NCBI GenBank assembly: GCA_023267275.1
Contig: JAHFNO010000006.1
Span: 9,519-73,518, forward strand
DNA length: 64,000 bases
From: Candidatus Nomurabacteria bacterium
GTDB lineage: Bacteria > Patescibacteriota > Minisyncoccia > Phycocordibacterales > UBA9973
Reading direction: 5' to 3'
The translations under genes were made by a program, and so were the position numbers. Under the pieces are notes generated by a model. The model had not been told where the DNA came from. It worked only from the letters and a program-made list of their open reading frames with translations, and searched no databases. Positions 1-21,252 of this stretch are shown here, in pieces. Within the stretch, counting starts at the first letter, position 1; every line of letters begins with the position of its first letter.

Positions 1-2
1 AT

Positions 3-1379
3 CAGAATGTACGAGGTGGAACTATCGTTGGTGGTAGTAGTTCATTTACAAGTACCTATACAGGTGGAACAGTGGCAACCCCGCAGATTCCAGATCTTTC
101 AACATCAAATAAAGCTCGTGCTGACATAATGCAAACTGGATATACAGCACTTCAAAATATGTCAGATGTTATTTCAACAGACAATGCTGAATTCCAAAAT
201 GCACAAAGTTACCGTGACAACATATCACAAAAAAAAGCAAATTTAGAAACGAGCCATGCGATTGAGCGACAACTTCTTTCCTTGCTTAAGCGTATTGATT
301 TACTACCAACACTTAGTGGGTATCCAGGACCTACAGGGTCGCTTGATCTTGTTCCAACAATCTCACTTAATGGGGATAAAGTTGTTACAGTAAACCAGGA
401 TGATACCTATACTGATGCTGGAGCAACAGCAAAAGATACAACTGATGGAGATATCACAAACAAAATTATCACGACAAATAACGTAGACACTGCAACCCCA
501 GGAATATACACCATAACCTATGACGTTATAAACAAAGCGGGGATTACGGCAAATCAAGTTACCCGCACTGTTCGCGTGCTTGATCCAAACAACTCGGTTT
601 TACCAGACATACAAAACTATGCGGTAAAAAATGAACCGTTCTCAAAAACAAACCTATTGCCTGACATAGGTACTTTGGATGGATCAGGTACCGGATCAAC
701 ACCTATACGTGATTACAACAAAGACTTGCTTGCAATCAAAAACATGAGAGATATTTCATCTTTTACTGACTACGAACTAGAACTCAGGGCGATCAATAAT
801 ATTTTCAGTCAAATCGCACCATATATTCATGGAGTAGACGATCTCAATAGTGAACAAGCTGTTCTCGATACGATGATGCTCTCTTCAAATAATATTGCGA
901 CCTTTGATAAAACAACAGGGGAACTCACTGGCGGTGTTCTGAATCAATGTATAAAAACAACCACAAAGCCTGGATATAAGGGTCCAACTGCCCGCAAATT
1001 GTTTGCATACCTCGCATCAAATGATGGCACAATTAAAAAATTACCTGAATGGCTCACCACAAAACTTCCTCCGAGTCAGTCATTCCTTCCAGACTGGCAC
1101 TTTGCACAAGGAAACGGACAACAATTGGATGGAAAAAATTGGTTTCCTGGCGATGGAGAACCAGCATATCCACCAGATATACAAGGTAAACAATTTACTT
1201 TCCATAATTATAATGGCAATACAATGAAATTGAATGGGGGCACAATGATTGTAGAAGTAAATGGACCTGTCTCACTTGATGATGATAAACTTATTCGAAA
1301 TGATGATGTCGTCAATATGACCTGGCAACCAGTAATCAATGCAATGAAGGGTATCGAAAATCTCACAGGAATGTATTAG
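3..1379 (+). CDS. Surface protein with bacterial Ig-like (DUF5011-type) domain; 5' end outside window
   Basis: The reading frame is open from position 3, so the gene starts upstream of the window. The motif GDKVVTVNQDDTYTDAGATAKDTTDGDITNKIITTNNVDTATPGIYTITYDVINKAGITANQVTRTVRV matches the DUF5011/Ig-like consensus. Confidence 0.6.
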   Translation, partial: QNVRGGTIVGGSSSFTSTYTGGTVATPQIPDLSTSNKARADIMQTGYTALQNMSDVISTDNAEFQNAQSYRDNISQKKANLETSHAIERQLLSLLKRIDLLPTLSGYPGPTGSLDLVPTISLNGDKVVTVNQDDTYTDAGATAKDTTDGDITNKIITTNNVDTATPGIYTITYDVINKAGITANQVTRTVRVLDPNNSVLPDIQNYAVKNEPFSKTNLLPDIGTLDGSGTGSTPIRDYNKDLLAIKNMRDISSFTDYELELRAINNIFSQIAPYIHGVDDLNSEQAVLDTMMLSSNNIATFDKTTGELTGGVLNQCIKTTTKPGYKGPTARKLFAYLASNDGTIKKLPEWLTTKLPPSQSFLPDWHFAQGNGQQLDGKNWFPGDGEPAYPPDIQGKQFTFHNYNGNTMKLNGGTMIVEVNGPVSLDDDKLIRNDDVVNMTWQPVINAMKGIENLTGMY

Positions 1380-1424
1380 AATCAATAAACAATTGAACAC
1401 GGGAACAAGAAAGCAAAACACACA

Positions 1425-4022
1425 ATGAAACGATTCGCTCCACTTATTTTTACGATAGCCATCCTCGCTAGCACGTTGTTGCCTTTTTCTGCGACACTCA
1501 CTGCAAACCGGGCATATGCAGACAATACAACTTCCGTAAACACCACCTATACTCCGCCACAAGATGTTCAAGGATATCTTGAAGAATGCAGTATAAAAAC
1601 TTTTATTCCAGGATGTCTTGAACAACTAATATATTATATTCCGTACACATTCGGTTCATGGGCAATGTCTGTTGCGGCCGAGGCATTTGACGCAGCGGCA
1701 AATCTTACGCTTTCAAGCACGCTCTATACAACAGGAAGCAATTTCCTTGAAAAAGGATGGACGGTCACCCGCGACTTTGCGAATATTTTCTTTATTCTCA
1801 TTTTGCTTTTCATTGCCTTTTCTTTAGTACTCGACATCGAGATTGGTCACGCAAACCCAAAGAAAATGCTGACCTCTGTTATCTTAGTTGCCATACTTAT
1901 CAACTTCAGCTTTTTTGCTACCGAGGTTGTCATTGATATTTCCAACTCCATGGCGCTCGTCTTCTACAACCAGATCAGCGTGGTAAATGAAAGCGGGGGA
2001 GCAGTAAACAATGATGATGTTAACAAACAGCTAAAAGACACAAACAATCAATATATCAATGCAAGTGCTGTAAAACCACTGAGTGTTGCCTTAGTAAAAG
2101 CATTTACTCCGCAAGTTTTTTCAAACCCGGCGTTTTATGAAAAACTTAAAAAAGTTGGGTCAAGTGGTTTCTTTAATTCGAGTAGCAAAGTAGTAAATAC
2201 AAGCGACAAGATTGAAGCGATGGTCATCATTCCAATCATGCTCATGGTAGGAATGATGTTTCTCGTCGTTGCATATAGTTTTATTGTGGCACTCATCTCA
2301 CTCCTTGGTCGCCTTATTGGGCTTTGGATTGCAATTGTTTTTGCACCGCTCGCCTTTGTTTCCATGATTGTTCCATCCACAAAGGAAATTTCAGGATTTG
2401 GTTGGAATGACTGGAGTAGTTCGCTTCTCACCAATGCATTTGCAGCACCAATCTATTTCTTTTTCTTGCTTCTTATTTCGCTTCTCACACAAATTTCTAT
2501 TGTTCCCAAGACAATTCCTGATTCGCTTTCACCTGGAATACTCCTTGTGCTTGTCATCATCCAATTTGCAATTGTTATGACAATGCTTTTGAAAGCTACT
2601 TCATACGTAAAGAAGGCGGCTGGAGAAATTGGCAACATGGTAATGAAGGGAGCACAGGTACTCGTTGGCGGAGCAGCTGGACTTGCCGCAGGAACAGCAC
2701 TTGGCGCGGTGGCACTTGGCGGACAAGCTACAGTTGGGTTTGTGGGCAAGAGAATTTCTCAATCTGGAATGCTTAATAAATGGGCATCTGGTGAAGGTGG
2801 TGGTGGAAAATTTGGACGAGCCCTTAAGCAATTTACCGGAGAAAATGTTTTGAAGGGTAGCCAATTCCTTTCAAAATCAAGTTTTGATGCACGCCACACT
2901 GGTGTTGCCAACGCGCTCTCTTCTGCAACAGGTATTGGGCTCGGTAGTTTTGGAGCGCTCGCAGCAGCAAAAACCGCGGGTGGTCTTGAGGCCGCTGCAG
3001 CTCGCAAAGCAGAAAAAGATGAAAAGTTTGCAAATAGTCTGCGACAAAATTCCGCTCAAGAAGCAGAATTGAAGAAACTGAAAGGCGCTCGAGAAAAAGA
3101 ACTAGATGAAAAAGAAGCGGAACAAAAACTACAACAAAAATTAAAGGAGAATATTGATGCTGAGGTTCGCACACAAGAAACAATTCGTCGTGAAGCTAGT
3201 GAATTAATGAAAAATCTAAATGCTCAAGGCATTAAACCAGGAGACAAGAGATATGACGATGCACAAAAAGCCTTTGATGAAGCTCTTGTAAAATTAAATG
3301 ATGGACCCAGCGCACTCAAAAAACAAGCTGAGGATGCTCGAAAAGCTGCTCAAAAAATTAAAGAGGAAGCTGATGCAATTAAGCTTGGAAAAAGAAACGC
3401 TGATGGAACTCAAATTAAGGCAACTGAAGGGGAGACTAAAGCCGACGGAACAACAGTTACAAAAAAAGAAGCAGACAGTGGAAAAATTATCAGCAAAGAT
3501 TCTTTGTCCCTTTCAGACCTTGAAAAGCTTGTTGAAAATAGTAAAAAAGCTCCTGCACGCGCATATCTCGCATATCAAGCAGAAACATCTGGCTATCATA
3601 CAAATGTCACCCGAGACAAACTTGGTAACGTAACTGGTTTCCATGTAGACACCAGTCAACCGGGGGAAAGAAATTGGGCACGAGCTGGTATGCGCGTATT
3701 TGGTGCAGCAGCACTTGGCGGGCTTACTGGAAATATTGGACTGCTTACAACGGCTGTTAGTGGAATTGGTGGCGCAGTAACATTTGGTGTTGCAGCGGCA
3801 ATGCGAGATGTACTAGCTGAAATGGGTGGAGGAAAAACAGGTAGTAGTATTGTGGCTGGAGAGGCTGCCCATCACACAGCAGAGCCAGGTGGCAAACACG
3901 AACACGAACATGGTGTCTATCACTCACCAAACAAAGACTTCTTTGATCAGTTGAAATCAATCTTTACTGGCGGTGGAGGAGGTGGAGGTGGATCCAAACC
4001 TGCTGCAGCTGCACATCATTAA
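1425..4022 (+). CDS. VirB6/TrbL-like polytopic membrane protein with long coiled-coil, Gly-rich C-terminal tail
   Basis: An N-terminal signal peptide is followed by at least six hydrophobic helices, a Gly/Ala-rich segment, and a charged coiled-coil region (KAEKDEKFANSLRQNSAQEAELKKLK...). It sits inside a T4SS-like gene cluster. Confidence 0.5.
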   Translation: MKRFAPLIFTIAILASTLLPFSATLTANRAYADNTTSVNTTYTPPQDVQGYLEECSIKTFIPGCLEQLIYYIPYTFGSWAMSVAAEAFDAAANLTLSSTLYTTGSNFLEKGWTVTRDFANIFFILILLFIAFSLVLDIEIGHANPKKMLTSVILVAILINFSFFATEVVIDISNSMALVFYNQISVVNESGGAVNNDDVNKQLKDTNNQYINASAVKPLSVALVKAFTPQVFSNPAFYEKLKKVGSSGFFNSSSKVVNTSDKIEAMVIIPIMLMVGMMFLVVAYSFIVALISLLGRLIGLWIAIVFAPLAFVSMIVPSTKEISGFGWNDWSSSLLTNAFAAPIYFFFLLLISLLTQISIVPKTIPDSLSPGILLVLVIIQFAIVMTMLLKATSYVKKAAGEIGNMVMKGAQVLVGGAAGLAAGTALGAVALGGQATVGFVGKRISQSGMLNKWASGEGGGGKFGRALKQFTGENVLKGSQFLSKSSFDARHTGVANALSSATGIGLGSFGALAAAKTAGGLEAAAARKAEKDEKFANSLRQNSAQEAELKKLKGAREKELDEKEAEQKLQQKLKENIDAEVRTQETIRREASELMKNLNAQGIKPGDKRYDDAQKAFDEALVKLNDGPSALKKQAEDARKAAQKIKEEADAIKLGKRNADGTQIKATEGETKADGTTVTKKEADSGKIISKDSLSLSDLEKLVENSKKAPARAYLAYQAETSGYHTNVTRDKLGNVTGFHVDTSQPGERNWARAGMRVFGAAALGGLTGNIGLLTTAVSGIGGAVTFGVAAAMRDVLAEMGGGKTGSSIVAGEAAHHTAEPGGKHEHEHGVYHSPNKDFFDQLKSIFTGGGGGGGGSKPAAAAHH

Positions 4023-4105
4023 GTAAGCATCTGCTTCCCCTCCTTGTCGAGGAGGGGATTGAGGGGAGGTGATTAAAATTTTTTAAATGCTACAATAATA
4101 AATAT

Positions 4106-4933
4106 ATGGCTGACGAAGTAAAAAAAGTACCTGTTGTCTCTAGTACAACAAACACTCCATCGGTAAACGATCCTCAGTTTGACGAAATAAAAAGTGAGCT
4201 TTTTACTCGTTTCGAACTTCTTCCTGATGATATCAAAAAGGCAATTACTGATGACGGATACCAAACAAAACTCCTCACTATTGCAAAAGAACAAAAAATG
4301 ACCTATGAAGAACTTGGTATACTGGAGACAGAAACAACGATGGTACTTCTTGGAATGACAAAACCTGAAGATTATCGCGATGAACTGCAATTGCAATTGA
4401 AAAAGAACGATGCAGATATCGATACCTTGGTAAAAAAAGTAAATGAACAGGTATTCCTTCCTATCCGCGCATCACTTGAACGAGTATACGCAGCAAAAAA
4501 GGAACCAGCAGATTATATTCCGGAAAGTATTGTTACTGGGGTTGTAGAAAAAACACCTCCCACCACCCCGCCTGGAGTACCAGTCACCCCTCCTCAGGCA
4601 GGAAGGGAAATAATGAGCACACTGTCCACACAAGACAAATCAATTCTTGAAAAAACTGGTGTGGTGATCAATGAAACAAAACCTACTCCCAACCCTGTGC
4701 AAACTGCAGGAGTTGCAAATCGTAATGATTTGCTGAAGGGAATAGAAAACCCTCCAAAAGCACCGGTCATTGGAATGATGGCAAGCAAACTCAACACTAC
4801 CGGGCCAGCCATGCCAACAAAATCGACCGATTACTCAATATTGAAAAATGCGAGTACTCCACCTCCCACAAATATTCCTGTCGCACCAAAAACACAAGGA
4901 TCTGATCCGTATCGGGAACCAATCGGACACTAG
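4106..4933 (+). CDS. hypothetical protein, Pro-rich C-terminus
   Basis: Clean ORF following the terminator hairpin at 4040-4062; no recognisable motif. Confidence 0.5.
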   Translation: MADEVKKVPVVSSTTNTPSVNDPQFDEIKSELFTRFELLPDDIKKAITDDGYQTKLLTIAKEQKMTYEELGILETETTMVLLGMTKPEDYRDELQLQLKKNDADIDTLVKKVNEQVFLPIRASLERVYAAKKEPADYIPESIVTGVVEKTPPTTPPGVPVTPPQAGREIMSTLSTQDKSILEKTGVVINETKPTPNPVQTAGVANRNDLLKGIENPPKAPVIGMMASKLNTTGPAMPTKSTDYSILKNASTPPPTNIPVAPKTQGSDPYREPIGH

Positions 4934-5024
4934 AACAAGAAAACATAAAAACACGAGAACAAAAAATACAATTGTTCTCGTGTTTTGTTTTCATGATCTT
5001 GTGCTCTAGTGATATAATGACTCT

Positions 5025-5429
5025 ATGCGATTTTCTGTTCCACAATTTATTGATGTTGAGGACAAAATTTTTGGACCGCTCACGTTCAAACAATTCGTCT
5101 ATCTTGTAGGTGGGGGAGGAATGGTTTTTCTTTGCTATAAATTCTTGCCTTGGTATCTTTGGATCCCTCTTGGTCTTGGATTCGGCGGTCTCGGATTTGC
5201 ACTCGCCTTTGTTAAGGTAAATGAAAAACCGCTCATCAATACGATAGAGGCAATGTTCAATTACGGTATCAATGACAAGCTCTACGTTTGGAAGAAAGAA
5301 CACCCAACCAAAAAATCACAAGAACAAAAGAACAAGGAACAAGAAGTGCCCGTTCAATTACTCCCCCGAATTTCAGAATCCAAGTTGCACGATATAGCTT
5401 GGGGACTTGATGTTCTTGATAAGAGCTAA
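5025..5429 (+). CDS. PrgI-family (VirB3-like) small membrane protein of T4SS
   Basis: The N-terminus (VPQFIDVEDKIFGPLTFKQFVYL) is followed by two TM helices, and the gene lies immediately upstream of VirB4. A conserved TGnTATAAT promoter module ends 7 nt before the ATG. Confidence 0.5.
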   Translation: MRFSVPQFIDVEDKIFGPLTFKQFVYLVGGGGMVFLCYKFLPWYLWIPLGLGFGGLGFALAFVKVNEKPLINTIEAMFNYGINDKLYVWKKEHPTKKSQEQKNKEQEVPVQLLPRISESKLHDIAWGLDVLDKS

Positions 5430-5472
5430 AAATAAAATAACACAAGAACACTAAAACAAAAGAACAAGATAT

Positions 5473-5838
5473 ATGCAGGGAAATACTTACAGAGAAACAC
5501 TTAAAAATAAAATGGATCAGTATGTTCATTTTATTTATGGGATAACGAAATCATTTCCAAAAGAAGAAATATTCGGTTCAGTTTCTCAAATACGTAGGGC
5601 GGGGCTTTCTGTTGTTTTGAATTATACGGAGGGTTATGCACGAAGAAAACCCTTGGTTCTACTAAACTTTTATGAGATTGCATATGGCTCTCTTCAAGAG
5701 TCAAAATATTTACTTTTGTTTGCAAAAGACGAAAAATATATACCTGAGGATATATACAAAAAAGGAGAAATTATGGCAAACGAAATAGGTGCAATGCTTT
5801 GGAAAGAAATTCAATCAATAGAAAAATCTATTAAATAA
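5473..5838 (+). CDS. four-helix-bundle protein (TIGR02436, 23S rRNA IVS-like protein family)
   Basis: Family signature SQIRRAGLSVVLNYTEGYARRKPLVLLNFYEIAYGSLQESKYLLLFAKDEKYI. Confidence 0.75.
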   Translation: MQGNTYRETLKNKMDQYVHFIYGITKSFPKEEIFGSVSQIRRAGLSVVLNYTEGYARRKPLVLLNFYEIAYGSLQESKYLLLFAKDEKYIPEDIYKKGEIMANEIGAMLWKEIQSIEKSIK

Positions 5839-5884
5839 CAATTTTTGATTTAATGTTCTCTTGTTCTGGTGATATACTGTTCTC

Positions 5885-6541
5885 GTGGCTATCAGCGCAA
5901 CAGCAACTCAAGAATTTGTTCCAATCAAAGAAGTCCGTGAAGGAACCATCGTTCTTAAAGATGGTGGTCTCCGGGCTATTATTGCCGTCTCATCAGTAAA
6001 CCTTGCCCTCAAATCAAGCGACGAGCAAATTGCAACAATCAATCAATTTCAGTCATTTCTCAATTCGATCGATTTTCCTATTCAAATAGTTATTCAATCT
6101 CGCCGTCTTGATATTCGACCATATCTCCTTATGCTCGAAGGCAAAATGAAAGACCAGCACGAACCTCTCCTTAAACTACAGACCGCTGGATATATTAGTT
6201 TCATTCGTGAATTTACCGAACAAGTCGCCATCATGCGCAAATACTTTTACGTAGTTATTCCCTATGAAGAAGCAGCGATTTCAACAAAAAAAGGTTTTTT
6301 GGGTGGAATTTTTGGGAACAAACAATCTGGACAGACAAAACAAATGGCTGAAAATGCAAGCTTTGAAGAAAAGCGAACACAACTTGATGAGCGCGTAAGT
6401 GTGATCGCAAATGGACTTGGCAGTGTTGGTGCTCGTACTGAGCGCCTGCAAACGGAGGAGGTGATCGAGCTCTTCTACAAGACATTCAATCCTGGAGATA
6501 TTCAACCTGCAGTAAAACTCGCCGAAGTAGTAAATCAATAA
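5885..6541 (+). CDS. VirB4/TraE N-terminal domain encoded as a separate gene
   Basis: GTG start. Matches the CagE/TrbE/VirB4 N-domain pattern (EGTIVLKDGGLRAIIAVSSVNLALKSSDEQ ... FPIQIVIQSRRLDIRPYL ... MRKYFYVVIPYEE). It is in a different frame from the downstream ATPase gene and separated from it by a 103-nt intergenic region. Confidence 0.6.
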   Translation: MAISATATQEFVPIKEVREGTIVLKDGGLRAIIAVSSVNLALKSSDEQIATINQFQSFLNSIDFPIQIVIQSRRLDIRPYLLMLEGKMKDQHEPLLKLQTAGYISFIREFTEQVAIMRKYFYVVIPYEEAAISTKKGFLGGIFGNKQSGQTKQMAENASFEEKRTQLDERVSVIANGLGSVGARTERLQTEEVIELFYKTFNPGDIQPAVKLAEVVNQ

Positions 6542-6644
6542 CCAATGAAACGCAAAAACACCAGAACAACTAAACAACAAATGCAAAAACAAGAATGTCT
6601 TTCTGGTTATTATTGTTTTAATGTTTTTATGATTTACTGATTTT

Positions 6645-8495
6645 ATGTTTTCACTATTTGGAAAAAAGAAAAACCCAGCTGGGGAATCAACCCACATTCA
6701 GGCAAACGCAATGCCTATTTTTCCTGAGCAAATTTACGAAGCAGCCTCACTTGAACTCAAAGACATCATCGCTCCTTCAGCACTCAAAATCGAACCAAAA
6801 TCAATCAACCTTGGAGACAAAATTGCACGTACCTATTTTGTTATTTCCTACCCATCAACACTCACCGACAATTGGCTCTCTCCAGTCATCAACCTCGACA
6901 AGGTATTTGATATTTCAATAACAATTCATCCTGTAGAAACTGCACAAATTCTTCGTCAATTTCAAAAGAAAGTAGCCGAGGTACAAAGCCAAATCATGGA
7001 ACGTGAAGCAAAGGGAATGGTGCGCGACCCAATGCTCGATATGGCGAACAAAAATCTTGAGGATTTGCGCGACCGTCTCACTCAAGCACAAGAAAAAATG
7101 TTTGATGTTGGACTCTATCTCACGATTTACGCCGATAACGAAACTGAATTGTATAAAATTGAAAATGAAATCAAATCAATTCTTGAATCAAAACTCATTT
7201 ACTTTAAGCCTGCACTCTTTCAGCAAGATGATGGATTTAAGAGCGTGCTTCCACTTGAAGACGATCGTTTACAGATATACCAAAAGCTCAATTCGGAGCC
7301 ACTCTCGAGTTTTTTCCCATTTGTTTCGTTTGACCTTACGAGTGACAAAGGAATTCTCTACGGTGTAAACCGCCACAATTCCTCACTCATTATTTTTGAC
7401 CGTTTCAGTCTCGACAACTACAACTCAATTATTTTTGCTACATCGGGTGCTGGAAAATCATACGCCACAAAACTCGAAGTGATTCGTTGTCTCATGTTCG
7501 ATACCGAAGTGATTGTTATCGACCCAGAACGTGAATACGAACGTCTCGCCGAAGCACTCGGTGGACGCTACTTCAATATTTCGCTCAACTCTGGAAGTCA
7601 CATCAATCCGTTTGACCTTCCGCTTCCTGGAGAGGGGGAGACGGGTAATGACGTGCTTCGCGGAAATGTCATCAATCTTGTTGGACTCTTTCGTATCATG
7701 CTTGGCGGACTTACTGCCGAAGAAGACGCGCTCGTTGATCGCGCCATAATGGAAACATATGCGGTTAAAGACATCACTCCGGATTCTGATTTTTCTCAAA
7801 TCGAACCGCCGCTTCTTTCCGATTTCGAAATGGTACTCTCGGGCATGGAAGGAACTGAATCAATCGTTTCTCGTCTTTCAAAATATACCCACGGTTCGTG
7901 GGCAGGGTTTATCAACCAGCCATCAAACGTAGACATCAACAAAAAATTTGTGGTTTTCTCTGTGCGCGACATGGAAGACGACCTCAAACCTGCAGCCATG
8001 TATATCGTGACCCACTTCATTTGGAACGAAGTTCGTAAAAATATCAAAAAACGACTGCTTGTAGTGGATGAGGCATGGTGGATGATGAAATCCGACGATA
8101 CTGCCTCGTTCTTGTACTCGATTGCAAAGCGCGGCCGCAAATATTTCTTAGGACTTGCCACAATCACTCAAGACGTCGGAGATTTTATGAAGAGCCCATA
8201 CGGTATTCCAATCGTTACGAACTCATCACTGCAACTTCTCTTGAAACAATCGCCATCAACGGTAGATGTATTGCAAAAAACATTCAACCTCACTGATGAA
8301 GAGAAATATCTGTTGCTTGAATGTAACAAGGGGGAGGGAATCTTCTTTGCTGGACTCAAACATGTGGCGATTAAAGTGATTGCCTCGTACACAGAAGACC
8401 AGCTCATCACAAGCGACCCGTCACAAATCCTAGCATTACAAAAATCAAGAACAGAACTCGCAGAAGCTGTATCTGGAACACCTCCGGTTCAATAA
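6645..8495 (+). CDS. virB4: T4SS ATPase VirB4/TraC/CagE family (C-terminal ATPase half)
   Basis: Walker A ATSGAGKSYATK, Walker B LLVVDEAWWMM, and the VirB4 middle-region motif DIIAPSALKIEPKSINLGDKIARTYFVISYP. Confidence 0.85.
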   Translation: MFSLFGKKKNPAGESTHIQANAMPIFPEQIYEAASLELKDIIAPSALKIEPKSINLGDKIARTYFVISYPSTLTDNWLSPVINLDKVFDISITIHPVETAQILRQFQKKVAEVQSQIMEREAKGMVRDPMLDMANKNLEDLRDRLTQAQEKMFDVGLYLTIYADNETELYKIENEIKSILESKLIYFKPALFQQDDGFKSVLPLEDDRLQIYQKLNSEPLSSFFPFVSFDLTSDKGILYGVNRHNSSLIIFDRFSLDNYNSIIFATSGAGKSYATKLEVIRCLMFDTEVIVIDPEREYERLAEALGGRYFNISLNSGSHINPFDLPLPGEGETGNDVLRGNVINLVGLFRIMLGGLTAEEDALVDRAIMETYAVKDITPDSDFSQIEPPLLSDFEMVLSGMEGTESIVSRLSKYTHGSWAGFINQPSNVDINKKFVVFSVRDMEDDLKPAAMYIVTHFIWNEVRKNIKKRLLVVDEAWWMMKSDDTASFLYSIAKRGRKYFLGLATITQDVGDFMKSPYGIPIVTNSSLQLLLKQSPSTVDVLQKTFNLTDEEKYLLLECNKGEGIFFAGLKHVAIKVIASYTEDQLITSDPSQILALQKSRTELAEAVSGTPPVQ

Positions 8496-8600
8496 AACAA
8501 AAAATCACGAGAACACTAGAGCAAAAAGCCCCGCGCTACGCGCGGGGCTTTTTGTTACTTTTTGTTTTTATGTTCATTGTTCTAGTGATATACTGTTTCT

Positions 8601-9581
8601 ATGATACGCAAAGCGTTGTTTACTCTCACTTTTATTGCAATCGTTGTACCAGCTATTTCATTTGCTCAGGTGAACGATCAAATTTCTGTTTCTACTGATC
8701 CAATAAATCCTGGTGCAAACCAATCCGTCACCGTAACACTCCAAAGTTATTCTCTCGATCTTCAATCGTCTGAAATCGATTGGTCTCTTGATGGAAAACG
8801 AATGAAAGGAGGTATTGGAAACAATACGTTTACTTTCACCACAAAAAGTATCGGTTCACCGTCAACAGTTTCTGTAACAGTTATTCCTATTGGAGTTCCG
8901 CAAATAACCAAAACAATCACCATCAATCCAATGTCGGTGGATATTCTCTGGCAGGCAACCGATTCAATCGTACCTCCGTTGTATAAGGGCAAAGCAATGC
9001 CAACATCAGAATCTCAAATAAAATTTGTGGCTATTCCTCAAGTACAAACTGCTGGAGGATCGCTTGTAGCAAGTAGTTCACTTATCTATGACTGGAAAGA
9101 AAATTACATAAGTGATCAGAGTAATTCCGGTTATGGAAAAGATTTCTTTATCACTGCGATGGACTATCTCAATCCAACAAAAGATGTGAGTGTATCGGTA
9201 GGAACCCGCGATGGAGGAACAGCTACTGATGGCACGGTGGAAATTAAACCGATCAATCCTGAAGTTCTTTGGTATGCATCGAGCCCTCTCTACGGTCCGC
9301 TCTTTTCTGCAGCGCTGGGTGACAGTTACACTGTGGCCGGTAACGAAACTTCTCTCGTTGCAATGCCATACTTCTTTTCACCCTCAAATCCTGCATCAAA
9401 TCTTTTGAGTTACGCATGGCAAATCAATGGAACGGCGGTAGACACACCAACAATCCCAAATTCTCTCTACCTGCACCGCGATTCAAGCTCGACCGGGAGC
9501 GCAACGATCGACCTTTCTATCTCAAACACCACAAAGCTTTTTCAAGAAGCCACTACTCATCTAAATTTGTTGTTGCAATAA
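8601..9581 (+). CDS. secreted hypothetical protein (signal peptide)
   Basis: N-terminal signal peptide MIRKALFTLTFIAIVVPAISFA; the conserved promoter module lies upstream. Confidence 0.5.
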   Translation: MIRKALFTLTFIAIVVPAISFAQVNDQISVSTDPINPGANQSVTVTLQSYSLDLQSSEIDWSLDGKRMKGGIGNNTFTFTTKSIGSPSTVSVTVIPIGVPQITKTITINPMSVDILWQATDSIVPPLYKGKAMPTSESQIKFVAIPQVQTAGGSLVASSSLIYDWKENYISDQSNSGYGKDFFITAMDYLNPTKDVSVSVGTRDGGTATDGTVEIKPINPEVLWYASSPLYGPLFSAALGDSYTVAGNETSLVAMPYFFSPSNPASNLLSYAWQINGTAVDTPTIPNSLYLHRDSSSTGSATIDLSISNTTKLFQEATTHLNLLLQ

Positions 9582-9585
9582 GTAT

Positions 9586-11328
9586 ATGAATAAAAAAATA
9601 TTTATTTTTCTTTTTGTTATACTTTCTTTTTTTGTAAAAATCCCATTTACATCTGCGGGTTTGCAACCATTCCCCAGCCCAACAATAAAAATTGTCTCTC
9701 TGGGTGGAGAAAACTATTCGATCGAGTTAACTTTTACAATGGATTCAGTAACATTAGAATCCATTAAAGACAGTCCGTTCCGTGTATCCCTAGCTCATAA
9801 AAATAGCAAGAAGGGTGCTACTGTATCAGATTCAGATACAATGGAAACATGTGCAAGAGAAGGCTCAACTTCTTTATATACATGCCCAATACAAAACTTA
9901 AAAAATGGGGATACTGAGGTTTTTCAGGTTGGAATAAATAAAAATACAGCTTTGGGTGTTTCCTGGTCTCCTTTATACCAACCAGCAACAACAACAATAA
10001 ATGAACCAGTCTCAACACCTTCATTCACCCTTCAAGGAAAACCTGTGGTAAGTGGAATGACTGCAACTGCTACAGTAAACGCCTCAAACCTTCCAGCTCA
10101 AGGCGGAATATATTACCTTGAATTAGGAGATGCGATGTCAAAATCAGGTGCAAGCAACTACACATGTACAATGAATTCAGGTTTACGTTCACCAGAAATA
10201 CCTGCTGGACATGGAAATCCAAATACCATCAGTTACACATTCACATTGCCACTTCCCGGTGGGTACTGTGTTGGATTGTTACAAAAAAATCTTAATGGGA
10301 GTGTGCGAACCCCCGATGGTGTTCCTGAATATTTTCCTGACTCATTATTTTTTACAGACGGGGTCACTCCACCTCCTGGAGCAACACTTAGTGGAACAGC
10401 AAATAAACTTGGTTGTGTAGCTGGAGACGGCAATAGTGGATACTGTTTACTCGCACCGCTTCCTGGAATTGGAGACCCGAATACTGGATATATCGATGTT
10501 ACCAAAGGCATGGGTAACTATATCAACATGATTATCCGTCTTGTACTTGGTCTCATTGGTGTGCTTGCAGTATTTATGATTATTGTTGGTGGTATCGAAT
10601 ACATGTCGACGGTTTCGCTCGGAGAAAAAGAGGGTGCAAGAACCCGTATTACCAACGCACTATTTGGACTTCTCCTTGCTCTTGCTTCATATATTCTCTT
10701 AAATACAATCAATCCTAACCTTGTAAGTCTGAAAGTGGCTATTCCAAATGCAACTATTGAATATGCCTCAGATGAAGGAAATGAAACAAGCGATATAACC
10801 CCTCCAACTCCAAACATTTCTGGTATTCAAGTTTTCCCAAGCGACACAGCGCAAAATCTGGCAAAACAAATACTGAAAACGCCGGCAATTACCTACCGCA
10901 CACTTCAAGATGAAGCTACAGCAACACCAAAACAAAATATTGAAGATACTGCAGCTGGCAATTCTGCTATGACAAGTAGTAGAGGAGATGTGGGAGCTCA
11001 AAAGGTTGCGTTGGCTGCTCCAATGCTTACTGGATTACTCACAGCTGCAAAATTCTCTTCAATAGAAATTACTGAGATCACTGGGGGAAAACATAGCCCT
11101 GGATCAGCACATTATTTTGGTAGAGCGTTTGATGTTACTGCATCAAAAAATGACACTTCGAGAAATATACAAGTGATGAATGCTTGTCTTGCCGCAAAAG
11201 CAAAAATGAGTCAAATATTTGGACCCTGTTCAGGCTCTTACCGAAGCGATGGAAAATTTACAATATGTGCCGATACAGGGTATCTCACAAACAAAGACCA
11301 TCAAACACATATTCACTGTGGCTGGTAG
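9586..11328 (+). CDS. Secreted protein with pilin-like two-helix membrane hairpin and C-terminal peptidase M15-like (cell-wall hydrolase) domain
   Basis: A signal peptide, then a TM hairpin (NMIIRLVLGLIGVLAVFMIIVGGIEYM ... ITNALFGLLLALASYILLNTINPNLV) reminiscent of VirB2/TrbC pilins. The C-terminus carries an H-x6-D motif (SPGSAHYFGRAFDV) and a terminal HIHCGW, like Zn DD/LD-peptidases. Confidence 0.45.
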   Translation: MNKKIFIFLFVILSFFVKIPFTSAGLQPFPSPTIKIVSLGGENYSIELTFTMDSVTLESIKDSPFRVSLAHKNSKKGATVSDSDTMETCAREGSTSLYTCPIQNLKNGDTEVFQVGINKNTALGVSWSPLYQPATTTINEPVSTPSFTLQGKPVVSGMTATATVNASNLPAQGGIYYLELGDAMSKSGASNYTCTMNSGLRSPEIPAGHGNPNTISYTFTLPLPGGYCVGLLQKNLNGSVRTPDGVPEYFPDSLFFTDGVTPPPGATLSGTANKLGCVAGDGNSGYCLLAPLPGIGDPNTGYIDVTKGMGNYINMIIRLVLGLIGVLAVFMIIVGGIEYMSTVSLGEKEGARTRITNALFGLLLALASYILLNTINPNLVSLKVAIPNATIEYASDEGNETSDITPPTPNISGIQVFPSDTAQNLAKQILKTPAITYRTLQDEATATPKQNIEDTAAGNSAMTSSRGDVGAQKVALAAPMLTGLLTAAKFSSIEITEITGGKHSPGSAHYFGRAFDVTASKNDTSRNIQVMNACLAAKAKMSQIFGPCSGSYRSDGKFTICADTGYLTNKDHQTHIHCGW

Positions 11329-11412
11329 CTCTCGGTTGAATTGAGTCACCCTTTATACTTTATACTTGAGCTTTGCATAAGTGTCCCCTTATACTTTATA
11401 CTTGATTTACCC

Positions 11413-12687
11413 ATGTCTCGAAAAACAATTCTTATTCTCATTGCAATTCTCCTCGTCGCACTCGGTGTGTGGTTCTATTTTTCGAGCGGAACTCCTTCAG
11501 GAACAAATTCTTCTGGAACACAAAAAAGTCTTTTGAGTTCTCTTTTTCCTTTTGGCGCGGGGACCAACAATCAACAGAACATAAAAACACAAGAACAAGG
11601 AACAACAAATCCAACTGAAGAGACTCAGAGCTCGAATACTCCAGATAAACTCATTCAAATATCAAATCGATTGGTTGCTGGTTTTATTCCACTTGTCACA
11701 GACACTACACCCATCATTAAACACGACATTGGTGGCGGACCAGAGTCACAGATTACTCAAAGTATTTTCCCAACAGTTCGTTTTGCCGAAAAAGGCACGG
11801 GGTACATTTACGATATTGATGTAAAAGGACAGAACGAAAAAAAGATTTCTGAAACAGTGATCGCTCGAACAGCAGAAGCTCTTTTTGCAAACGGTGGTGT
11901 CAACGTATTGCTCCGCTATATTAAAACCGACAATACAACTATTGCCTCATTCCTCGGCACTGTTACAGCACCAGCAAATACCAATGCGGTCGGCACACTT
12001 ACTGGAAATTTCCTTGAGGAAAATATTCCGACTGTCACAACATCACCTGACAAAAAGAATTTTCTCTTTTTAATACCAACAAACACGGGTATCGCTGGTA
12101 TCAGTATGAAAGGCGATGGAAGCGGTAAGAAGCAATTGTTTACGAGTTCTTTCTCTGAATGGCTCCTCGATTGGGGAACGAGCCCAATGCTTACCAGCAA
12201 GGCTTCTAGCACTGTTCCTGGCTATGCATACACTGTACTTGCCGGTGGATCACTGCAAAAAGTACTGGGCAATATAGATGGCCTTACTACAAAGATTAGT
12301 CCGGATGGAAAGACACTACTCTATAGCGTTTCTGGTGGAGGAAGTCTCAATTTACACATCCTAACGCTAAAAACCGGAGTTGATACAAATACCGGTCTTA
12401 CAACACTTCCGGAAAAATGTACTTGGAATACAACGAGTACTGTCGTTTATTGCGGAGTAGGTACGGCAATAGTATCAGCAGAATATCCTGACTCATGGTA
12501 CAAAGGTGTCACTCATTTCACAGATTCATTTTGGAAAATAGACACAACCACAAAAACCACGACGGAAATAAATACGGGGGAGGGAAACAATCTTGATGTA
12601 ATAAATCCAAGCATCGACCCAACTAGTCAATATCTTATTTTCATAAACAAAACAAACGGTAGTCTTTGGTCTTTACAACTCAATTAA
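11413..12687 (+). CDS. membrane-anchored protein with TolB-like beta-propeller repeats
   Basis: The ORF track starts at 11341, but the Met at 11413 begins a TM anchor (MSRKTILILIAILLVALGVWFYF). PDGKTLLYS-type repeats are present. Confidence 0.45.
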   Translation: MSRKTILILIAILLVALGVWFYFSSGTPSGTNSSGTQKSLLSSLFPFGAGTNNQQNIKTQEQGTTNPTEETQSSNTPDKLIQISNRLVAGFIPLVTDTTPIIKHDIGGGPESQITQSIFPTVRFAEKGTGYIYDIDVKGQNEKKISETVIARTAEALFANGGVNVLLRYIKTDNTTIASFLGTVTAPANTNAVGTLTGNFLEENIPTVTTSPDKKNFLFLIPTNTGIAGISMKGDGSGKKQLFTSSFSEWLLDWGTSPMLTSKASSTVPGYAYTVLAGGSLQKVLGNIDGLTTKISPDGKTLLYSVSGGGSLNLHILTLKTGVDTNTGLTTLPEKCTWNTTSTVVYCGVGTAIVSAEYPDSWYKGVTHFTDSFWKIDTTTKTTTEINTGEGNNLDVINPSIDPTSQYLIFINKTNGSLWSLQLN

Positions 12688-12705
12688 TCACAAGAGCAAG
12701 AGAAC

Positions 12706-12853
12706 AATGAATTACCCCGAGCTTACGCTCGGGGTATCTTATATAGAAATACAGCAAAGCTGTATTTCCTTGTGTCCAGAGAGCCCAGGACACAAGAACT
12801 CGCTGCATCACGCGACCTTACGGTCGCGGTATTGGGTGGAAGCCCAGCGTAAT
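12706..12853 (+). repeat. 146-nt multi-hairpin repeat, copy 1 (identical copy at 28868-29015)
   Basis: Identical sequence at both loci. Hairpins CCCCGAGC-TTAC-GCTCGGGG, ATACAGC-AAA-GCTGTAT, TTGTGTCC-N10-GGACACAA and GCGACC-TTAC-GGTCGC, plus an outer CGCTG/CAGCG stem. Each copy is followed by a different intrinsic terminator. Confidence 0.7.
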
Positions 12854-12924
12854 AAAACAAAAATCAAAACCGCGCCTGGCGCGGTTTTGATTTAGTGTGT
12901 TTATGATTTCTTGTTCTGGTGTTT

Positions 12925-13431
12925 TTATGTTCTTGTGTCTCGATATCGAATAACAATGTGTCGTTTCATTCCATCACCCGCTGATTCGGTGTACACATCA
13001 GGGACTTCTCCGAGGAACTCGTGAATGATGCGGCGTTCGTGTGGAGGCATTGGGTCGAGATCAACACTTGATTTAAAATACCGTGCGCGTTCTGCCATCA
13101 TGTGTGCGATGGTTTTTAAATTGTCGATTTTCTTTTTCTCAACATTATTTGCATCAATCACCACACGTGGTCGAACTGTTTCTTCACGCATGATTTGTTC
13201 AACAACTTTTGTTGCCAAGTGATTGAGTGCAGTGAGTGCTTCACCATCACGATTTGAAAGAAGGCGAGTGTGCGGGGAAGTAATAGAAAACCAAATAGTA
13301 TTCATTTTCTCATCATACGAAACAGTAACATCAGCCTCAGTAAAACCGAGTTGAGCAAGCATGCCTTTTATATATGTATGTATTTGGTCGTGTTTCATAG
13401 CGTATATCTCAAATCCTATATTTTGTATCAA
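12925..13431 (-). CDS. jag: RNA-binding protein Jag/KhpB (KH + R3H domains)
   Basis: R3H motif ERRIIHEFL; conserved position downstream of yidC. Confidence 0.75.
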   Translation of the reverse strand: MIQNIGFEIYAMKHDQIHTYIKGMLAQLGFTEADVTVSYDEKMNTIWFSITSPHTRLLSNRDGEALTALNHLATKVVEQIMREETVRPRVVIDANNVEKKKIDNLKTIAHMMAERARYFKSSVDLDPMPPHERRIIHEFLGEVPDVYTESAGDGMKRHIVIRYRDTRT

Positions 13432-13471
13432 TTAGAGGAAAGCCCGCCGATAGGCGGGCTTTTAAGAAAGA

Positions 13472-14200
13472 TTAAGCTTGTTTCTTCGCCTTCATCTTGC
13501 TTCGTGTGTAGAGCTCCTGACCTATAGTAAAGATATTACTCGTAATCCAATAAAGCGCAACTGCTGAAGGAAAAAGGAAGTAAGAGAGTCCGGCAGTCAT
13601 AATAGGGAGTCCATAAATCATTTGTACCTGCATATTCTTGGCAAATTCGGCTTGCATACCAGTACCTGTTGGCTTTGCCTGACGACTCTGCATAAGTTTT
13701 GCTTGTACAAACTGTGTTACTCCAACCAAAACAGCAAATACAATACTGTGCTTCACCGAAAGATCGATAAATCCCAAGAAGTGGAGATTGATGAGTGCTG
13801 GCTGGTGTACAAATGAATAGAGTGTCGCTGGTTGAACAATAGTAAGGATTCCAAGAAAGGCTCGATAGAGAGCAATGAGTACCACAGCCTGGATCAAGAG
13901 TGGCATACAACTTGAAAACGGACTGATATTCTTTTCTTTATACAGTGCGAAAATTTGTTTGTTCTGTTCGGTTTTATCAGTAACTTTTTCTTTGATAGCA
14001 GCAACTTCATCTTGCACACTAGTCATTTTGATCTGGCCTTCGATTGCATGCTGGTTGAGCGGGAAGAGGGCGAGTTTGATAATAATTGTAAGAATAATAA
14101 CCGCAAGACCAAGGTCTCCGTGTGGCAAAATACCAATACCAAAGATCAGTGCATTGTAAAAAGGCTGATAAAAAACAGCGGTCCAAAAAGTGTGTAACAT
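13472..14200 (-). CDS. yidC: membrane protein insertase YidC (short form)
   Basis: Polytopic 242-aa protein in the conserved rnpA-yidD-yidC-jag order. Confidence 0.8.
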   Translation of the reverse strand: MLHTFWTAVFYQPFYNALIFGIGILPHGDLGLAVIILTIIIKLALFPLNQHAIEGQIKMTSVQDEVAAIKEKVTDKTEQNKQIFALYKEKNISPFSSCMPLLIQAVVLIALYRAFLGILTIVQPATLYSFVHQPALINLHFLGFIDLSVKHSIVFAVLVGVTQFVQAKLMQSRQAKPTGTGMQAEFAKNMQVQMIYGLPIMTAGLSYFLFPSAVALYWITSNIFTIGQELYTRSKMKAKKQA

Positions 14201-14310
14201 TGGGTCATTATATCACTAGAGCACGAGAACATGAAAACAAATAAAACCACGCCAGGCGCGGTTTTATTATATCGTGTTTTTATGATTTTTTGTTCTGGTG
14301 TTCTTGTGGT

Positions 14311-14592
14311 TCATGGAACCAGGTCTACACCTGGTGTATTGCGTGGATTACAACGAAGAAGTCGTTTTGATCCTAGATAAACACCTTTGATGGTGCCGTG
14401 TTTTTCAATAGCTTGCTTCATATATTCAGAGCATGTCGGGTAGTACATACACACCTTCCGATTAAGACCAAAAAATCGTGGAATACGTCCGGTGTCAAAA
14501 GACAAGAACTTTTGGTAAAAGATAATCAAAAATATAAAGGGTTTCTTAGAAATTGTGGTCACTGTTTTTATGATCTTTTGTTTATTGTTCAT
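14311..14592 (-). CDS. yidD: membrane protein insertion efficiency factor YidD
   Basis: CMYYPTCSEY motif. Confidence 0.8.
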   Translation of the reverse strand: MNNKQKIIKTVTTISKKPFIFLIIFYQKFLSFDTGRIPRFFGLNRKVCMYYPTCSEYMKQAIEKHGTIKGVYLGSKRLLRCNPRNTPGVDLVP

Positions 14593-14935
14593 TGACTCTA
14601 TATATTCGCGCTTGAATAAACGCTTTTTTGAGTTCTTCCCGCATTTCAGGAATGGTTGTCTTGATATCTGGGTTTGTATAAGAAACGAGGGCTACGGCAG
14701 TTGGGGAAAGAAAGGGGATAAGTGGTCGCACAGCATCATACCCTCGTCGGCGAAGCTTATTTCGAAGCACAGCTTTTGGTGCAATCTTCTTTGAGGCGCT
14801 GAAGGATACTTGGGGAGCTGTATGGGAAGGAATTTGTGTATACAAAACAAGAAAGCGCGAAGTTTTTAACCTTCGGCCCTTGAGAAGATGCTTTTCTATC
14901 GTTTGCTTCGTAATACGCGATCTCTTTGGAAGCAT
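14582..14935 (-). CDS. rnpA: ribonuclease P protein component
   Basis: Basic 117-aa protein immediately downstream of rpmH in the conserved context. Confidence 0.75.
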   Translation of the reverse strand: MLPKRSRITKQTIEKHLLKGRRLKTSRFLVLYTQIPSHTAPQVSFSASKKIAPKAVLRNKLRRRGYDAVRPLIPFLSPTAVALVSYTNPDIKTTIPEMREELKKAFIQARIYRVNEQ

Positions 14936-14994
14936 GTAATGAATTTCTAAATCCTAATGTCTAATTTCTAAAAAAGACCTAGGTATAAAGAAAA

Positions 14995-15129
14995 TTAGAG
15001 TGCGATTTTAGCGCGACCTTTCTGGCGTCTCTTTGCCAAGACTTTTCGTCCGGAAGTAGATTTTGAGCGAACGAGGAAACCGTGGGTTTTTGCTCGTTTT
15101 CTCTTTTTTGGCTGGTAGGTAAATGACAT
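14995..15129 (-). CDS. rpmH: 50S ribosomal protein L34
   Basis: [44 protein letters not shown]; the internal Met at 15129 is used rather than the longer ORF start. Confidence 0.9.
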
Positions 15130-15538
15130 AGAGCCAATATAGCACAAGAACATAAAAACACAAGAACAATAAAACAAAAAATATGAAAACCTGACTTATA
15201 GCTATAGGGTGTGTGTTGGTGGTCTAATGTTCCTTTGTTCTTGTGATTATGGTTCTTGTGATCTTGTAATTTAGTGTTCTATTGAATTTTTTGTTTTCAT
15301 GTTCATTTGTTCTTGTGTTATATTGGTTACCCACAGGTTATCAACAGAGATATGCATCGATATTTCTACTCAAAAAAACCTCGGCCTATATAATCGAACT
15401 TATGGATCCCGTAGTAGAAAATGACATTAAAGAAGCGGGACTGTAAGAGTGTGGTAAACATAAAAAGAAAACCGTTACTAGTATTAATTTAGAAAATGGG
15501 TCGCTTCTTTAAGAAGCAATGTCATTTCTCACTACGGG
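15130..15538. promoter_or_regulatory. candidate oriC part 1 / dnaA promoter region
   Basis: Strand switch between rpmH (-) and dnaA (+). DnaA-box-like 9-mers TTACCCACA, TTATCAACA and TGTGGTAAA each carry 1-2 mismatches to TTATCCACA. Multiple GTTCTTGTG repeats are present. Confidence 0.5.
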
Positions 15539-18222: not shown

Positions 18223-18319
18223 ACCCAGGTGTTGGGTGTTTGGTTTTAGGTGTTAGAAAAATACAAATCAATTTTAAGATGATTTACTATTCCCTTAATC
18301 CTAATCCCTTTTCCCTACA

Positions 18320-21195: not shown

Positions 21196-21252
21196 TCCAG
21201 TATCATATCACGACCCAAGGACAAAAAAGGGCATTTATGGTACAGTGCTTTT

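Follow-up and report, generated by a model that had tools for sequence, protein, structure and literature searches.

The 64,000-nt stretch analysed here, hereafter the window, covers positions 9,519 to 73,518 of contig JAHFNO010000006.1 from a Candidatus Nomurabacteria genome (GCA_023267275.1) and carries near its left end a cluster of co-directional genes for a type IV secretion system (T4SS). We conclude, with a probability of about 0.85, that this cluster encodes the chromosomal, non-conjugative T4SS characteristic of Patescibacteria (Candidate Phyla Radiation, CPR), here in a member of the Paceibacteria (Parcubacteria/Nomurabacteria-like), and that it descends from the conjugation machinery of monoderm bacteria belonging to the mating-pair formation class FATA (MPF-FATA). 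A preliminary description of this DNA had proposed a minimal Gram-positive-type apparatus derived from a T4SS, whose role would more likely lie elsewhere than in plasmid transfer. This is supported by the VirB4, TrsD, PrgI, VirB6 and pilin assignments and by the absence of relaxase and coupling-protein families from the scanned window ORFs. Since the same conclusions have already been published for Patescibacteria (PMC12102498, PMC10633639, PMC12857230), we regard the interpretation as right but not new. Patescibacteria account for much of bacterial diversity, and the locus bears on how they draw resources from their hosts; it adds no new kind of system and offers a clean, complete example from Paceibacteria, with 80 loci for comparison. 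One detail of the locus is new, namely an interchangeable cell-wall hydrolase carried on a pilin-like hairpin.

The cluster was found at 1425-12687 on the plus strand, where the preliminary description had placed it. Nine plausible co-directional open reading frames (ORFs) were counted in this interval instead of the eleven genes reported earlier, and the intergenic gaps of 4-106 nt are too small for more. The left boundary at 1425 was also wrong, as two conserved genes encoding 1130-aa and 292-aa proteins lie further upstream, the window edge running through the former; the conserved cluster therefore comprises ten genes and begins outside the window. On the exact source contig, the gene for the 1130-aa protein begins about 2 kb upstream of the window and ends at window position 1379, and the gene for the 292-aa protein is preceded by ksgA and then uvrD. 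The G+C content of the cluster (about 0.39-0.43) is similar to that of its flanks. The features, in window coordinates unless stated otherwise, are as follows.

Source-contig locus L081, 5560-9955, upstream of window position 1: genes of the 292-aa and 1130-aa proteins
1-1379, plus strand: 3' part (last ~459 codons) of the gene for the 1130-aa surface protein; the in-window ORF 72-1379 gives its C-terminal 435 aa
1425-4022, plus strand: predicted extended VirB6/TrbL-like polytopic membrane protein, 865 aa
4106-4933, plus strand: 275-aa soluble protein
5025-5429, plus strand: PrgI/VirB3-like small membrane protein, 134 aa
5473-5838, plus strand: 23S-rRNA-IVP/four-helix-bundle (bAvd-like) passenger, 121 aa
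5885-6541, plus strand: TrsD-like protein (VirB4 N-domain), 218 aa
6645-8495, plus strand: VirB4 ATPase with the middle and C-terminal P-loop domains, 616 aa
8520-8556, plus strand: terminator-like hairpin after virB4
8601-9581, plus strand: 326-aa secreted orphan protein
9586-11328, plus strand: 580-aa fusion of Ig-like domains, hairpin and predicted LAS/M15 domain
11341-12687, plus strand: 448-aa ORF with a TTG start, the ATG at 11413 being likelier (~424 aa); anchored probable propeller
12861-12893, both strands: bidirectional terminator hairpin closing the cluster

Window ORFs, including all those of at least 300 aa and most of the shorter ones, were scanned with Pfam and NCBIfam. VirB4 matched the NCBIfam family conju_CD1110 with E=5.6e-114 and 382 bits against a cutoff of 325, over profile positions 181-733 of 752, and also matched the Pfam families P-loop_TraG and AAA_10. 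Its translation contains the P-loop ATSGAGKS at about residue 262 and the Walker B motif LLVVDE at residue 471. The TrsD-like protein encoded just upstream matched positions 2-75 of conju_CD1110, positions 103-233 of VirB4_plasma (E=6.5e-11) and the TrsD family (E=1.5e-7), and its precomputed annotation is PF26593 TraC-like. The split VirB4 noted beforehand is thus borne out by the conju_CD1110 and TrsD/VirB4_plasma profiles, and the same holds for the PrgI/VirB3-like protein, which scored above the cutoff of Pfam PF12666 (E=6.7e-8, 33.4 bits against 27) and has a single hydrophobic segment at residues 45-65. For comparison, we took the best 80 of at least 591 VirB4 relatives, with one genome per species, and located the neighbouring genes by tblastn of every window protein. 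TrsD is an ORF of its own in 80 of 80 loci, with a length of 210-234 aa in 74 of the 76 complete ORFs, indicating that the split is conserved and not a frameshift. The gene for PrgI stands directly upstream of that for TrsD in 76 of the 80 loci.

The 865-aa protein had been called a VirB6/TrbL-like polytopic protein, and its layout is in keeping with this name. It has a signal peptide, six to seven hydrophobic helices at residues 112-431 and a hydrophilic tail of about 400 aa, in which a coiled-coil/helical region of about 200 aa (residues 520-720) is followed by a Gly-rich and His-rich C-terminus. Distant homologues of this protein carry PF04610/PF19590. One of them, P0060, aligns with residues 70-648 (E=5e-36) and itself matches TrbL at 27.5 bits (cutoff 25.9) within the aligned membrane region, so that the TrbL assignment is transitive. 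Structure prediction, suggested beforehand as a check, gave an AlphaFold2 model with a confidence (pLDDT) of 80, and the top three Foldseek matches to this model in the PDB were TrwI/VirB6 of R388 (7o3v, 8rtd), with DotA in fourth place; TrwI/VirB6 is thus the best, though weak, fold match. A PDB search with the sequence of the 865-aa protein gave no match, and one with a profile of 70 sequences returned only coiled-coil noise from the tail and no VirB6. The size of VirB6 is typically about 300 aa in MPF-FATA and 700-900 aa in MPF-FA (PMC12857230), and we predict from the sequence and the model that the protein belongs to the "extended VirB6" type of that review.

The synteny comparison, also proposed in the preliminary description, showed that the gene order is conserved beside core genes in 80 Paceibacteria species. 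All 80 VirB4 relatives come from metagenome-assembled genomes of the Paceibacteria type (Paceibacteria/Nomurabacteria/Yonathbacteria) with VirB4 proteins 73-89% identical, and the order VirB6, 275-aa protein, PrgI, TrsD, VirB4, 326-aa protein, hairpin/hydrolase protein and propeller, followed by jag-yidC-rnpA on the minus strand and dnaA-dnaN, recurs in nearly all loci whose flanks extend far enough. The median identity in the same genomes is 77% (73-89) for VirB4, 63% for DnaA, 58% for TrsD, 47% for DnaN, 46% for PrgI and 42% for YidC. These values indicate purifying selection on VirB4 of the kind seen for core genes, with a constraint at least equal to that on core replication genes. The fixed synteny and a VirB4 conserved above DnaA argue against a mobile element.

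An ordinary integrative conjugative element, or a decaying remnant of one in which the split VirB4 is a frameshift pseudogene, would account for a VirB4 that passes the cutoff of a family of conjugative elements, for the placement of the VirB4 N-domain and the remainder in separate ORFs 104 nt apart, and for the passenger gene inside the cluster. This rival is highly improbable and was rejected on conservation, because the TrsD/VirB4 split recurs in every one of the 80 species with TrsD ORFs of 210-234 aa, the whole cluster keeps its place beside ksgA and jag-yidC-rnpA-dnaA across tens of species, and VirB4 is better conserved than DnaA; in addition, the cluster resembles its flanks in composition. 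Pfam and NCBIfam scans of the ORFs in the 64-kb window detected no relaxase and no type IV coupling protein (T4CP; VirD4/TcpA) family, with neither found in the 8.6 kb upstream, and no VirB11, VirB9 or VirB10 family; nor did the window scans find an integrase. The absence of a recognizable VirD4, relaxase, VirB11 and VirB9/10 noted at the outset therefore holds for the scanned window ORFs. The preliminary description had regarded a relaxase with a coupling protein nearby, or failure of the VirB6, PrgI and VirB4 assignments, as evidence against its proposal; the former pair was not found in the scanned ORFs and the three assignments held up, that of VirB6 indirectly.

The known system closest to the locus is the Patescibacteria clade of T4SSs. 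Quinonero-Coronel et al. 2025 (Microb Genom, PMC12102498) described a Patescibacteria-specific VirB4 clade nested in MPF-FATA, with TrsD as the commonest neighbour of VirB4, accompanied by PrgI/VirB3, VirB6 and VirB2-like pilins, with very few relaxases and with T4CP genes distant from virB4; in Paceibacteria and Microgenomatia, dnaA, dnaN, rnpA and ksgA are frequent virB4 neighbours. Wang et al. 2023 (Cell, PMC10633639) showed by transposon sequencing (Tn-seq) of Southlakia epibionticum that the T4SS of Saccharibacteria, which has no recognizable coupling or relaxase proteins, is essential for epibiotic growth. The present locus shares with these systems (PMC12102498; S. epibionticum SEML1_0006-0019) the separate TrsD beside VirB4, PrgI/VirB3, VirB6 and a VirB2-like domain, the lack of a nearby relaxase or T4CP and of VirB7/9/10/11, and a chromosomal site by dnaA, dnaN, rnpA and ksgA. 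It differs in that Saccharimonadia have about six free pilin genes and separate peptidase and lysozyme genes after virB4, whereas here a single hairpin gene is fused to Ig-like domains and a hydrolase. Moreover, the accessory genes of this locus (326, propeller, 275, 292 and 1130 aa) are not discussed in PMC12102498 or PMC10633639, and the words "propeller" and "M15" do not occur in PMC12102498.

Among MPF-FATA elements (CTn2/CD1110 of C. difficile, pCF10 Prg, pGO1 Trs and the Mycoplasma element with Mbov_0395/0397), the CD1110 and Mycoplasma families are the best matches of VirB4, TrsD is of the pGO1 type, PrgI is shared, the hairpin matches Mbov_0395 below cutoff, and the membrane-anchored muralytic enzyme is analogous to PrgK, TraG and TcpG. 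Unlike these elements, the cluster has no relaxase, T4CP, oriT or integrase and occupies a fixed chromosomal site in many species; it also has the 865-aa extended VirB6 and no recognizable VirB8-like PrgL/TraM. The VirB systems of R388 and Agrobacterium (MPF-T) use the same set of VirB2, VirB3, VirB4 and VirB6 to build a pilus on a VirB6 platform. They differ from the present locus, which lacks the outer-membrane core VirB7/9/10 as well as VirB5, VirB8 and VirB11 and has large extra domains on its pilin, and the fold likeness to them is weak (E 0.19-0.37).

Several points weigh against the reading of the cluster as a chromosomal, non-conjugative Patescibacteria T4SS. The VirB6 call is indirect, as direct Pfam and NCBIfam searches with the 865-aa protein gave no family and the TrwI fold matches have E values of 0.19-0.37 with TM-scores below 0.4. 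The hairpin of the 580-aa protein taken alone matches PF18895 with E=2.7e-4 and 21.4 bits, under the cutoff of 26.6, and with about 300 aa on its N-terminal side and 200 aa on its C-terminal side it may serve only as a membrane anchor without polymerising. No VirB8-like protein was recognized in the cluster. The single PD40 repeat of the 448-aa protein scored 18.2 bits, under the cutoff of 20.9, and its profile matched TolB (7mx5) with E=0.017. A relaxase or coupling protein could lie elsewhere in the genome, VirD4-like genes being far from virB4 in most Patescibacteria (PMC12102498). The loci were picked by VirB4 similarity, which biases the identity comparison slightly toward VirB4. Finally, the essentiality data come from Saccharimonadia and not from any Paceibacteria T4SS (PMC10633639).

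The 580-aa protein had been described as a fusion of a pilin hairpin with an M15 peptidase; the hairpin is borne out through homologues and the C-terminal domain has an LAS/M15 zinc motif. From the N-terminus, the protein has a signal peptide, two Ig/FN3-like beta-sandwiches (residues 33-240), a VirB2/T4SS-pilin-like transmembrane hairpin (310-375) and a C-terminal LAS/M15 domain (~420-580). Structure prediction, the check proposed for this protein as well, resolved the signal peptide, the sandwiches, the hairpin and an alpha/beta C-terminal domain; the model has a pLDDT of 87, rising above 90 in the C-terminal domain, and its tandem FN3/Ig fold was matched with E=5e-6. Because the two N-terminal beta-sandwiches dominate the search, the top 50 Foldseek matches are Ig/FN3 only, and the peptidase domain was therefore assessed by sequence profile. 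PF18895 (T4SS_pilin) is matched by 58 of 58 homologues of the 580-aa protein (best E=1.5e-12) and TrbC/VirB2 by seven, and the hairpin of the protein itself matches the Mbov_0395 pilin-like family below cutoff (E=2.3e-4).

In the C-terminal domain, the zinc-ligand motifs are SAHYFGRAFD at residues 507-516 and HQTHIHCGW at 572-580. The patterns S-x-H-x-x-G-x-A-x-D and H-x-H are invariant in 13 orthologues, and a profile of the domain matched Hedgehog N-domains with E=2.4e-4 over both motifs. The domain thus combines the H-x6-D ligands and the C-terminal H-x-H of LAS/M15 enzymes on an alpha/beta fold. All Pfam scores were below cutoff (Peptidase_M15*, VanY and HH_signal), the only match being HH_signal at 14.8-17.1 bits against 22.1. 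Compared with LAS/MEROPS M15 members (VanY, VanX, Hedgehog N-domain and phage endolysins), the domain shares the invariant zinc-ligand motifs and differs in its four invariant cysteines, its C-terminal HCGW and its sub-cutoff Pfam scores. We predict that it is a divergent subfamily of LAS/M15 zinc peptidases, and some orthologues carry clear VanY or Peptidase_M15_4 domains at the place of the LAS domain.

The domain at this place varies widely among relatives. The window has one hairpin gene and related loci usually have one, always downstream of the gene for the 326-aa protein. Orthologues of the hairpin protein range from 171 to 733 aa, and C-terminal extensions of 150-277 aa are present on 70 of 76. 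On these extensions, Pfam identified NlpC/P60 (15), VanY (10), Amidase_5 (7), YkuD (5), Peptidase_M15_4, SLT, SLT_2 and CHAP (3 each), SLT_3 (2), and Amidase_2, 3D, SLT_4 and ELLD (1 each). The swapped domains belong to at least six unrelated folds (NlpC/P60, CHAP/Amidase_5, VanY/M15/LAS, YkuD, SLT-type lysozymes, Amidase_2 and 3D) in loci whose VirB4 proteins stay 73-89% identical, and database homologues of the hairpin protein show the same swapping of muralytic families. Pilin-hydrolase fusions are not mentioned in PMC12102498, and none were found in further literature searching.

Two explanations of this arrangement were weighed. In the first, the 580-aa protein is a VirB1-type hydrolase acting on the cell's own wall for channel assembly, like PrgK, TraG of pIP501 and TcpG, and the hairpin is merely an anchor that forms no pilus. 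Monoderm T4SSs do need membrane-anchored hydrolases of various catalytic folds (PMC12102498), and this organism makes peptidoglycan, with a class A penicillin-binding protein encoded at 18679-21195; furthermore, a locus usually has a single hairpin gene and no pilin array, and bulky domains at both termini disfavour tight packing in a filament. On the other hand, the hairpin is the best-conserved portion of the protein, with its pilin match in all homologues, a few orthologues (171-203 aa) consist of scarcely more than signal peptide and hairpin, and so many unrelated muralytic folds seem more than upkeep of the own wall requires and would fit differing target walls. We consider a VirB1-type role plausible, at a little under even chances. 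In the second explanation, the VirB2-like hairpin of Paceibacteria would be a modular "warhead" carrier shown at the cell-cell interface by the T4SS platform, its muralytic domain breaching host peptidoglycan for a feeding or secretion conduit. The fast turnover of hydrolase folds beside a highly conserved motor would favour adaptation to varied target walls, but as a whole this explanation seems to us rather unlikely. If it were true, each species would have a hydrolase suited to the wall chemistry of its host, and the enzyme would help to set host range. The interchangeable hydrolase on the hairpin thereby offers a testable hypothesis for wall passage and possibly for host specificity.

For the non-conjugative T4SS favoured here, we propose that VirB4/TrsD, tethered by PrgI, would power a structure that spans the envelope and rests on a VirB6 platform. 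The VirB2-like hairpin might dock on this platform or polymerise from it, which would place the Ig-like domains and the peptidoglycan hydrolase outside the cell at the tip of the machine. The hydrolase could then open a cell wall, whether the cell's own, the host's or both, and a contact-dependent conduit to the host cell would form. The 326-aa protein, the anchored propeller and the 292-aa and 1130-aa proteins may form or guide the extracellular part, with the soluble 275-aa protein as a candidate adaptor or substrate, and the cargo could be exported effectors or imported host nucleic acids or nutrients. The role in DNA uptake or host interaction suggested in the preliminary description agrees with published speculation: a conduit resembling a pilus, serving either to deliver effectors or for uptake, has been discussed in a 2025 FEMS review (PMC12857230) and in PMC11665869, and a June 2026 preprint described tubular structures at the parasite-host interface.

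A rival on the direction of transport, though not on identity, holds that the apparatus works in uptake, as ComB does in Helicobacter and Ced in Sulfolobales, and imports host nucleic acids or other macromolecules for an organism unable to make nucleotides. It would explain why the cluster lacks the relaxase and T4CP needed for DNA export, and VirB4 has weak matches to CedB (E=7.6e-8) and CedD, which are ATPases of DNA import in archaea; these scores are, however, far under cutoff and limited to the shared P-loop region. The T4SS has been proposed as a route of nucleotide acquisition, ComEC being dispensable in S. epibionticum (PMC11665869), and the 2026 preprint reported that a cultured Minisyncoccota parasite feeds on host RNA and may have T4SS pili. 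Against this, the cluster has no gene for a nuclease, for a protein that binds nucleic acids or for a channel like ComEC, very few T4SSs are demonstrated importers, and sequence cannot give the direction of transport. We regard import as possible but somewhat doubtful.

Besides the core components, the comparative set yields conserved lineage-specific partners of the T4SS, namely the 292-, 1130-, 275- and 326-aa proteins and the probable propeller. The 1130-aa protein has a signal peptide, an orphan N-terminal domain, a hydrophobic segment with a glycine zipper (residues 554-590) and a Bact_surface_Ig-like domain (PF16403, E=2e-20). Its N-terminal domain (residues ~130-530) contains two invariant cysteines and a T-P-G motif, and is kept directly 5' of the VirB6-like gene in 42 loci; a profile search found no PDB relative of this domain and Pfam scans of 25 N-domain orthologues were empty. 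The 292-aa protein, encoded before it, is membrane-anchored at its N-terminus and kept in 34 related loci. The 275-aa protein evolves fast and consists of an N-terminal helical domain, a variable Pro-rich linker and a C-terminal DPY(RE), in which D267, P268 and Y269 are invariant among 37 orthologues; its gene is at the same position in 38 of the 80 loci. It has no Pfam or NCBIfam family, no hydrophobic segment and nothing credible in a PDB profile search. The DPY motif could be a peptide that docks on the ATPase or the VirB6 tail, or a secretion signal.

The gene for the 326-aa protein directly follows virB4 in 78 of the 80 loci. The protein, whose length varies little among relatives (~320-335 aa), has a cleavable-type signal peptide at residues 1-25 and appears by eye to contain three repeated W-containing segments. 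Its family comprises more than 650 clusters from Paceibacteria/Nomurabacteria, all hypothetical and with no Pfam domain; the protein itself matched no Pfam or NCBIfam family, and the six matches of a PDB profile search were all sub-threshold, the best at E=0.033. Three secreted proteins had been described in the cluster, but a plain signal peptide was found only on this one, and the 275-aa protein, with no hydrophobic segment, is not secreted. The 448-aa ORF is the last gene before jag in 68 of the 80 loci and encodes a probable TolB/PD40-like beta-propeller anchored at its N-terminus. The anchor reported earlier stands, as a hydrophobic segment at residues 19-52 of the 448-aa ORF, while the propeller is weakly supported by the sub-threshold PD40 and TolB matches; among 42 orthologues, PD40 was detected in five and PG_binding_1 in two (E=8e-9).

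The 121-aa protein, counted as part of the apparatus in the preliminary description, turned out to be an unrelated four-helix-bundle passenger. It matched PF05635 (E=4.9e-25) and TIGR02436 (E=1.4e-24), and its gene lies between prgI and trsD, flanked by the arms of a 29-nt imperfect inverted repeat (5441-5469 and 5859-5887). Only eight of the 80 related loci have this gene, seven of them upstream of prgI, indicating that it is a passenger and not a T4SS component. An Avd component of a diversity-generating retroelement was likewise rejected, as the Avd score is 27 against a cutoff of 80 bits and no reverse transcriptase is nearby. The differing positions suggest repeated independent insertion of this gene family, which is abundant in CPR.

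The cluster had also been placed next to the replication origin, and this is confirmed by the genes that directly follow it. The minus-strand genes jag (R3H), yidC and rnpA occupy 12925-14935, dnaA (15539-16900, plus strand) begins 2.9 kb beyond the cluster end, and dnaN lies at 17125-18222 on the plus strand. Five DnaA-box-like 9-mers are present in the dnaA-dnaN spacer, and near 12 kb the sign of the GC skew reverses; together with the origin genes, these features show that the cluster abuts the origin. The whole T4SS cluster (1-12687) is transcribed toward oriC (~15-17 kb) from the lagging-strand template, head-on to the leftward fork, and jag-yidC-rnpA is co-directional with the fork. The head-on arrangement of the T4SS genes is found in nearly all related loci and is an uncommon orientation for an operon that is so well conserved and presumably strongly expressed.

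Several candidate transcription signals lie within and around the cluster. Just after virB4, the hairpin at 8520-8556 has a 17-bp stem followed by a T-run and strongly resembles an intrinsic terminator, which would probably split the cluster into two or more transcription units. The terminator at 12861-12893 has a 15-bp stem and was called on both strands. It is part of the spacer of about 200 nt (12690-12900) between the last T4SS gene and the convergent jag, which contains five near-perfect hairpins with a minimum free energy of -97 kcal/mol (z=-10.6) and matched no Rfam family. A 62-aa ORF at 12707-12895 was rejected as a gene, having no homologue in the 80 loci and lying within this terminator/hairpin region. 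Ahead of prgI, a promoter-like element on the plus strand (4972-5024) consists of the motif TTGTTCTCGTG and then the extended -10 TGATATAAT, ending 6 nt before the ATG, and similar elements precede trsD (5861-5884) and the gene for the 326-aa protein (8577-8600). As read from the sequence, extended -10 boxes of the form TGATATAMT end 6 nt before the starts of these three genes, a pattern that points to leaderless mRNAs and to three or more promoters within the cluster.

The 11-mer TTGTTCTNGTG occurs in 16 exact copies against 0.2 expected, all located at 4.9-22.8 kb (4928-22748) and nearly all intergenic, with example sites at 4952/4972, 5861, 6559, 8506/8578, 12911, 14222/14291, 15159-15317, 18631 and 22627-22748. 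The copies often form inverted pairs around GC-rich terminator hairpins, and forward copies overlap the extended -10 boxes 6 nt before the starts of prgI, trsD, the gene for the 326-aa protein and rpmH. TTGTTCTNGTG is absent from the window at 23-64 kb and from 1.4 Mb of related loci, indicating that it is species-specific and confined to the region around the origin and the T4SS. A conserved T4SS operator was rejected on its absence from related species. A set of promoters or operators, a REP-like (repetitive extragenic palindromic) element and origin-proximal binding sites are candidate explanations.

Elsewhere in the window, a PilB/T2SSE-type ATPase with an MshEN domain (a type IV pilus motor) is encoded at 29094-30788 and is the sole other secretion ATPase in the window. 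A 949-aa protein (32367-35216) has a DUF11-type repeat at 23.0 bits (cutoff 24) and a weak purple-acid-phosphatase-N match. Both are candidates for a surface apparatus of interest in an episymbiont. A type I restriction-modification operon of hsdM, hsdS and hsdR (40106-48919) is interrupted by a gene with an NYN domain (41898-42563), a gene for a 226-aa protein and a Fic/DOC gene (44755-45885). A short plus-strand ORF at about 50240-50900 begins with MFYVYVLKSKKDEELYIGSTNDLKRRIKEHESGE, which by eye resembles a GIY-YIG nuclease motif. At 52194-52267, ARAGORN called a "tRNA-Stop, anticodon tta". A UAA-suppressor tRNA was rejected because the anticodon loop, CUUUUAA, is that of tRNA-Lys(UUU); the D and T arms are also like those of tRNA-Lys, and this gene is most likely a tRNA-Lys(UUU) whose anticodon was mis-registered by one base.

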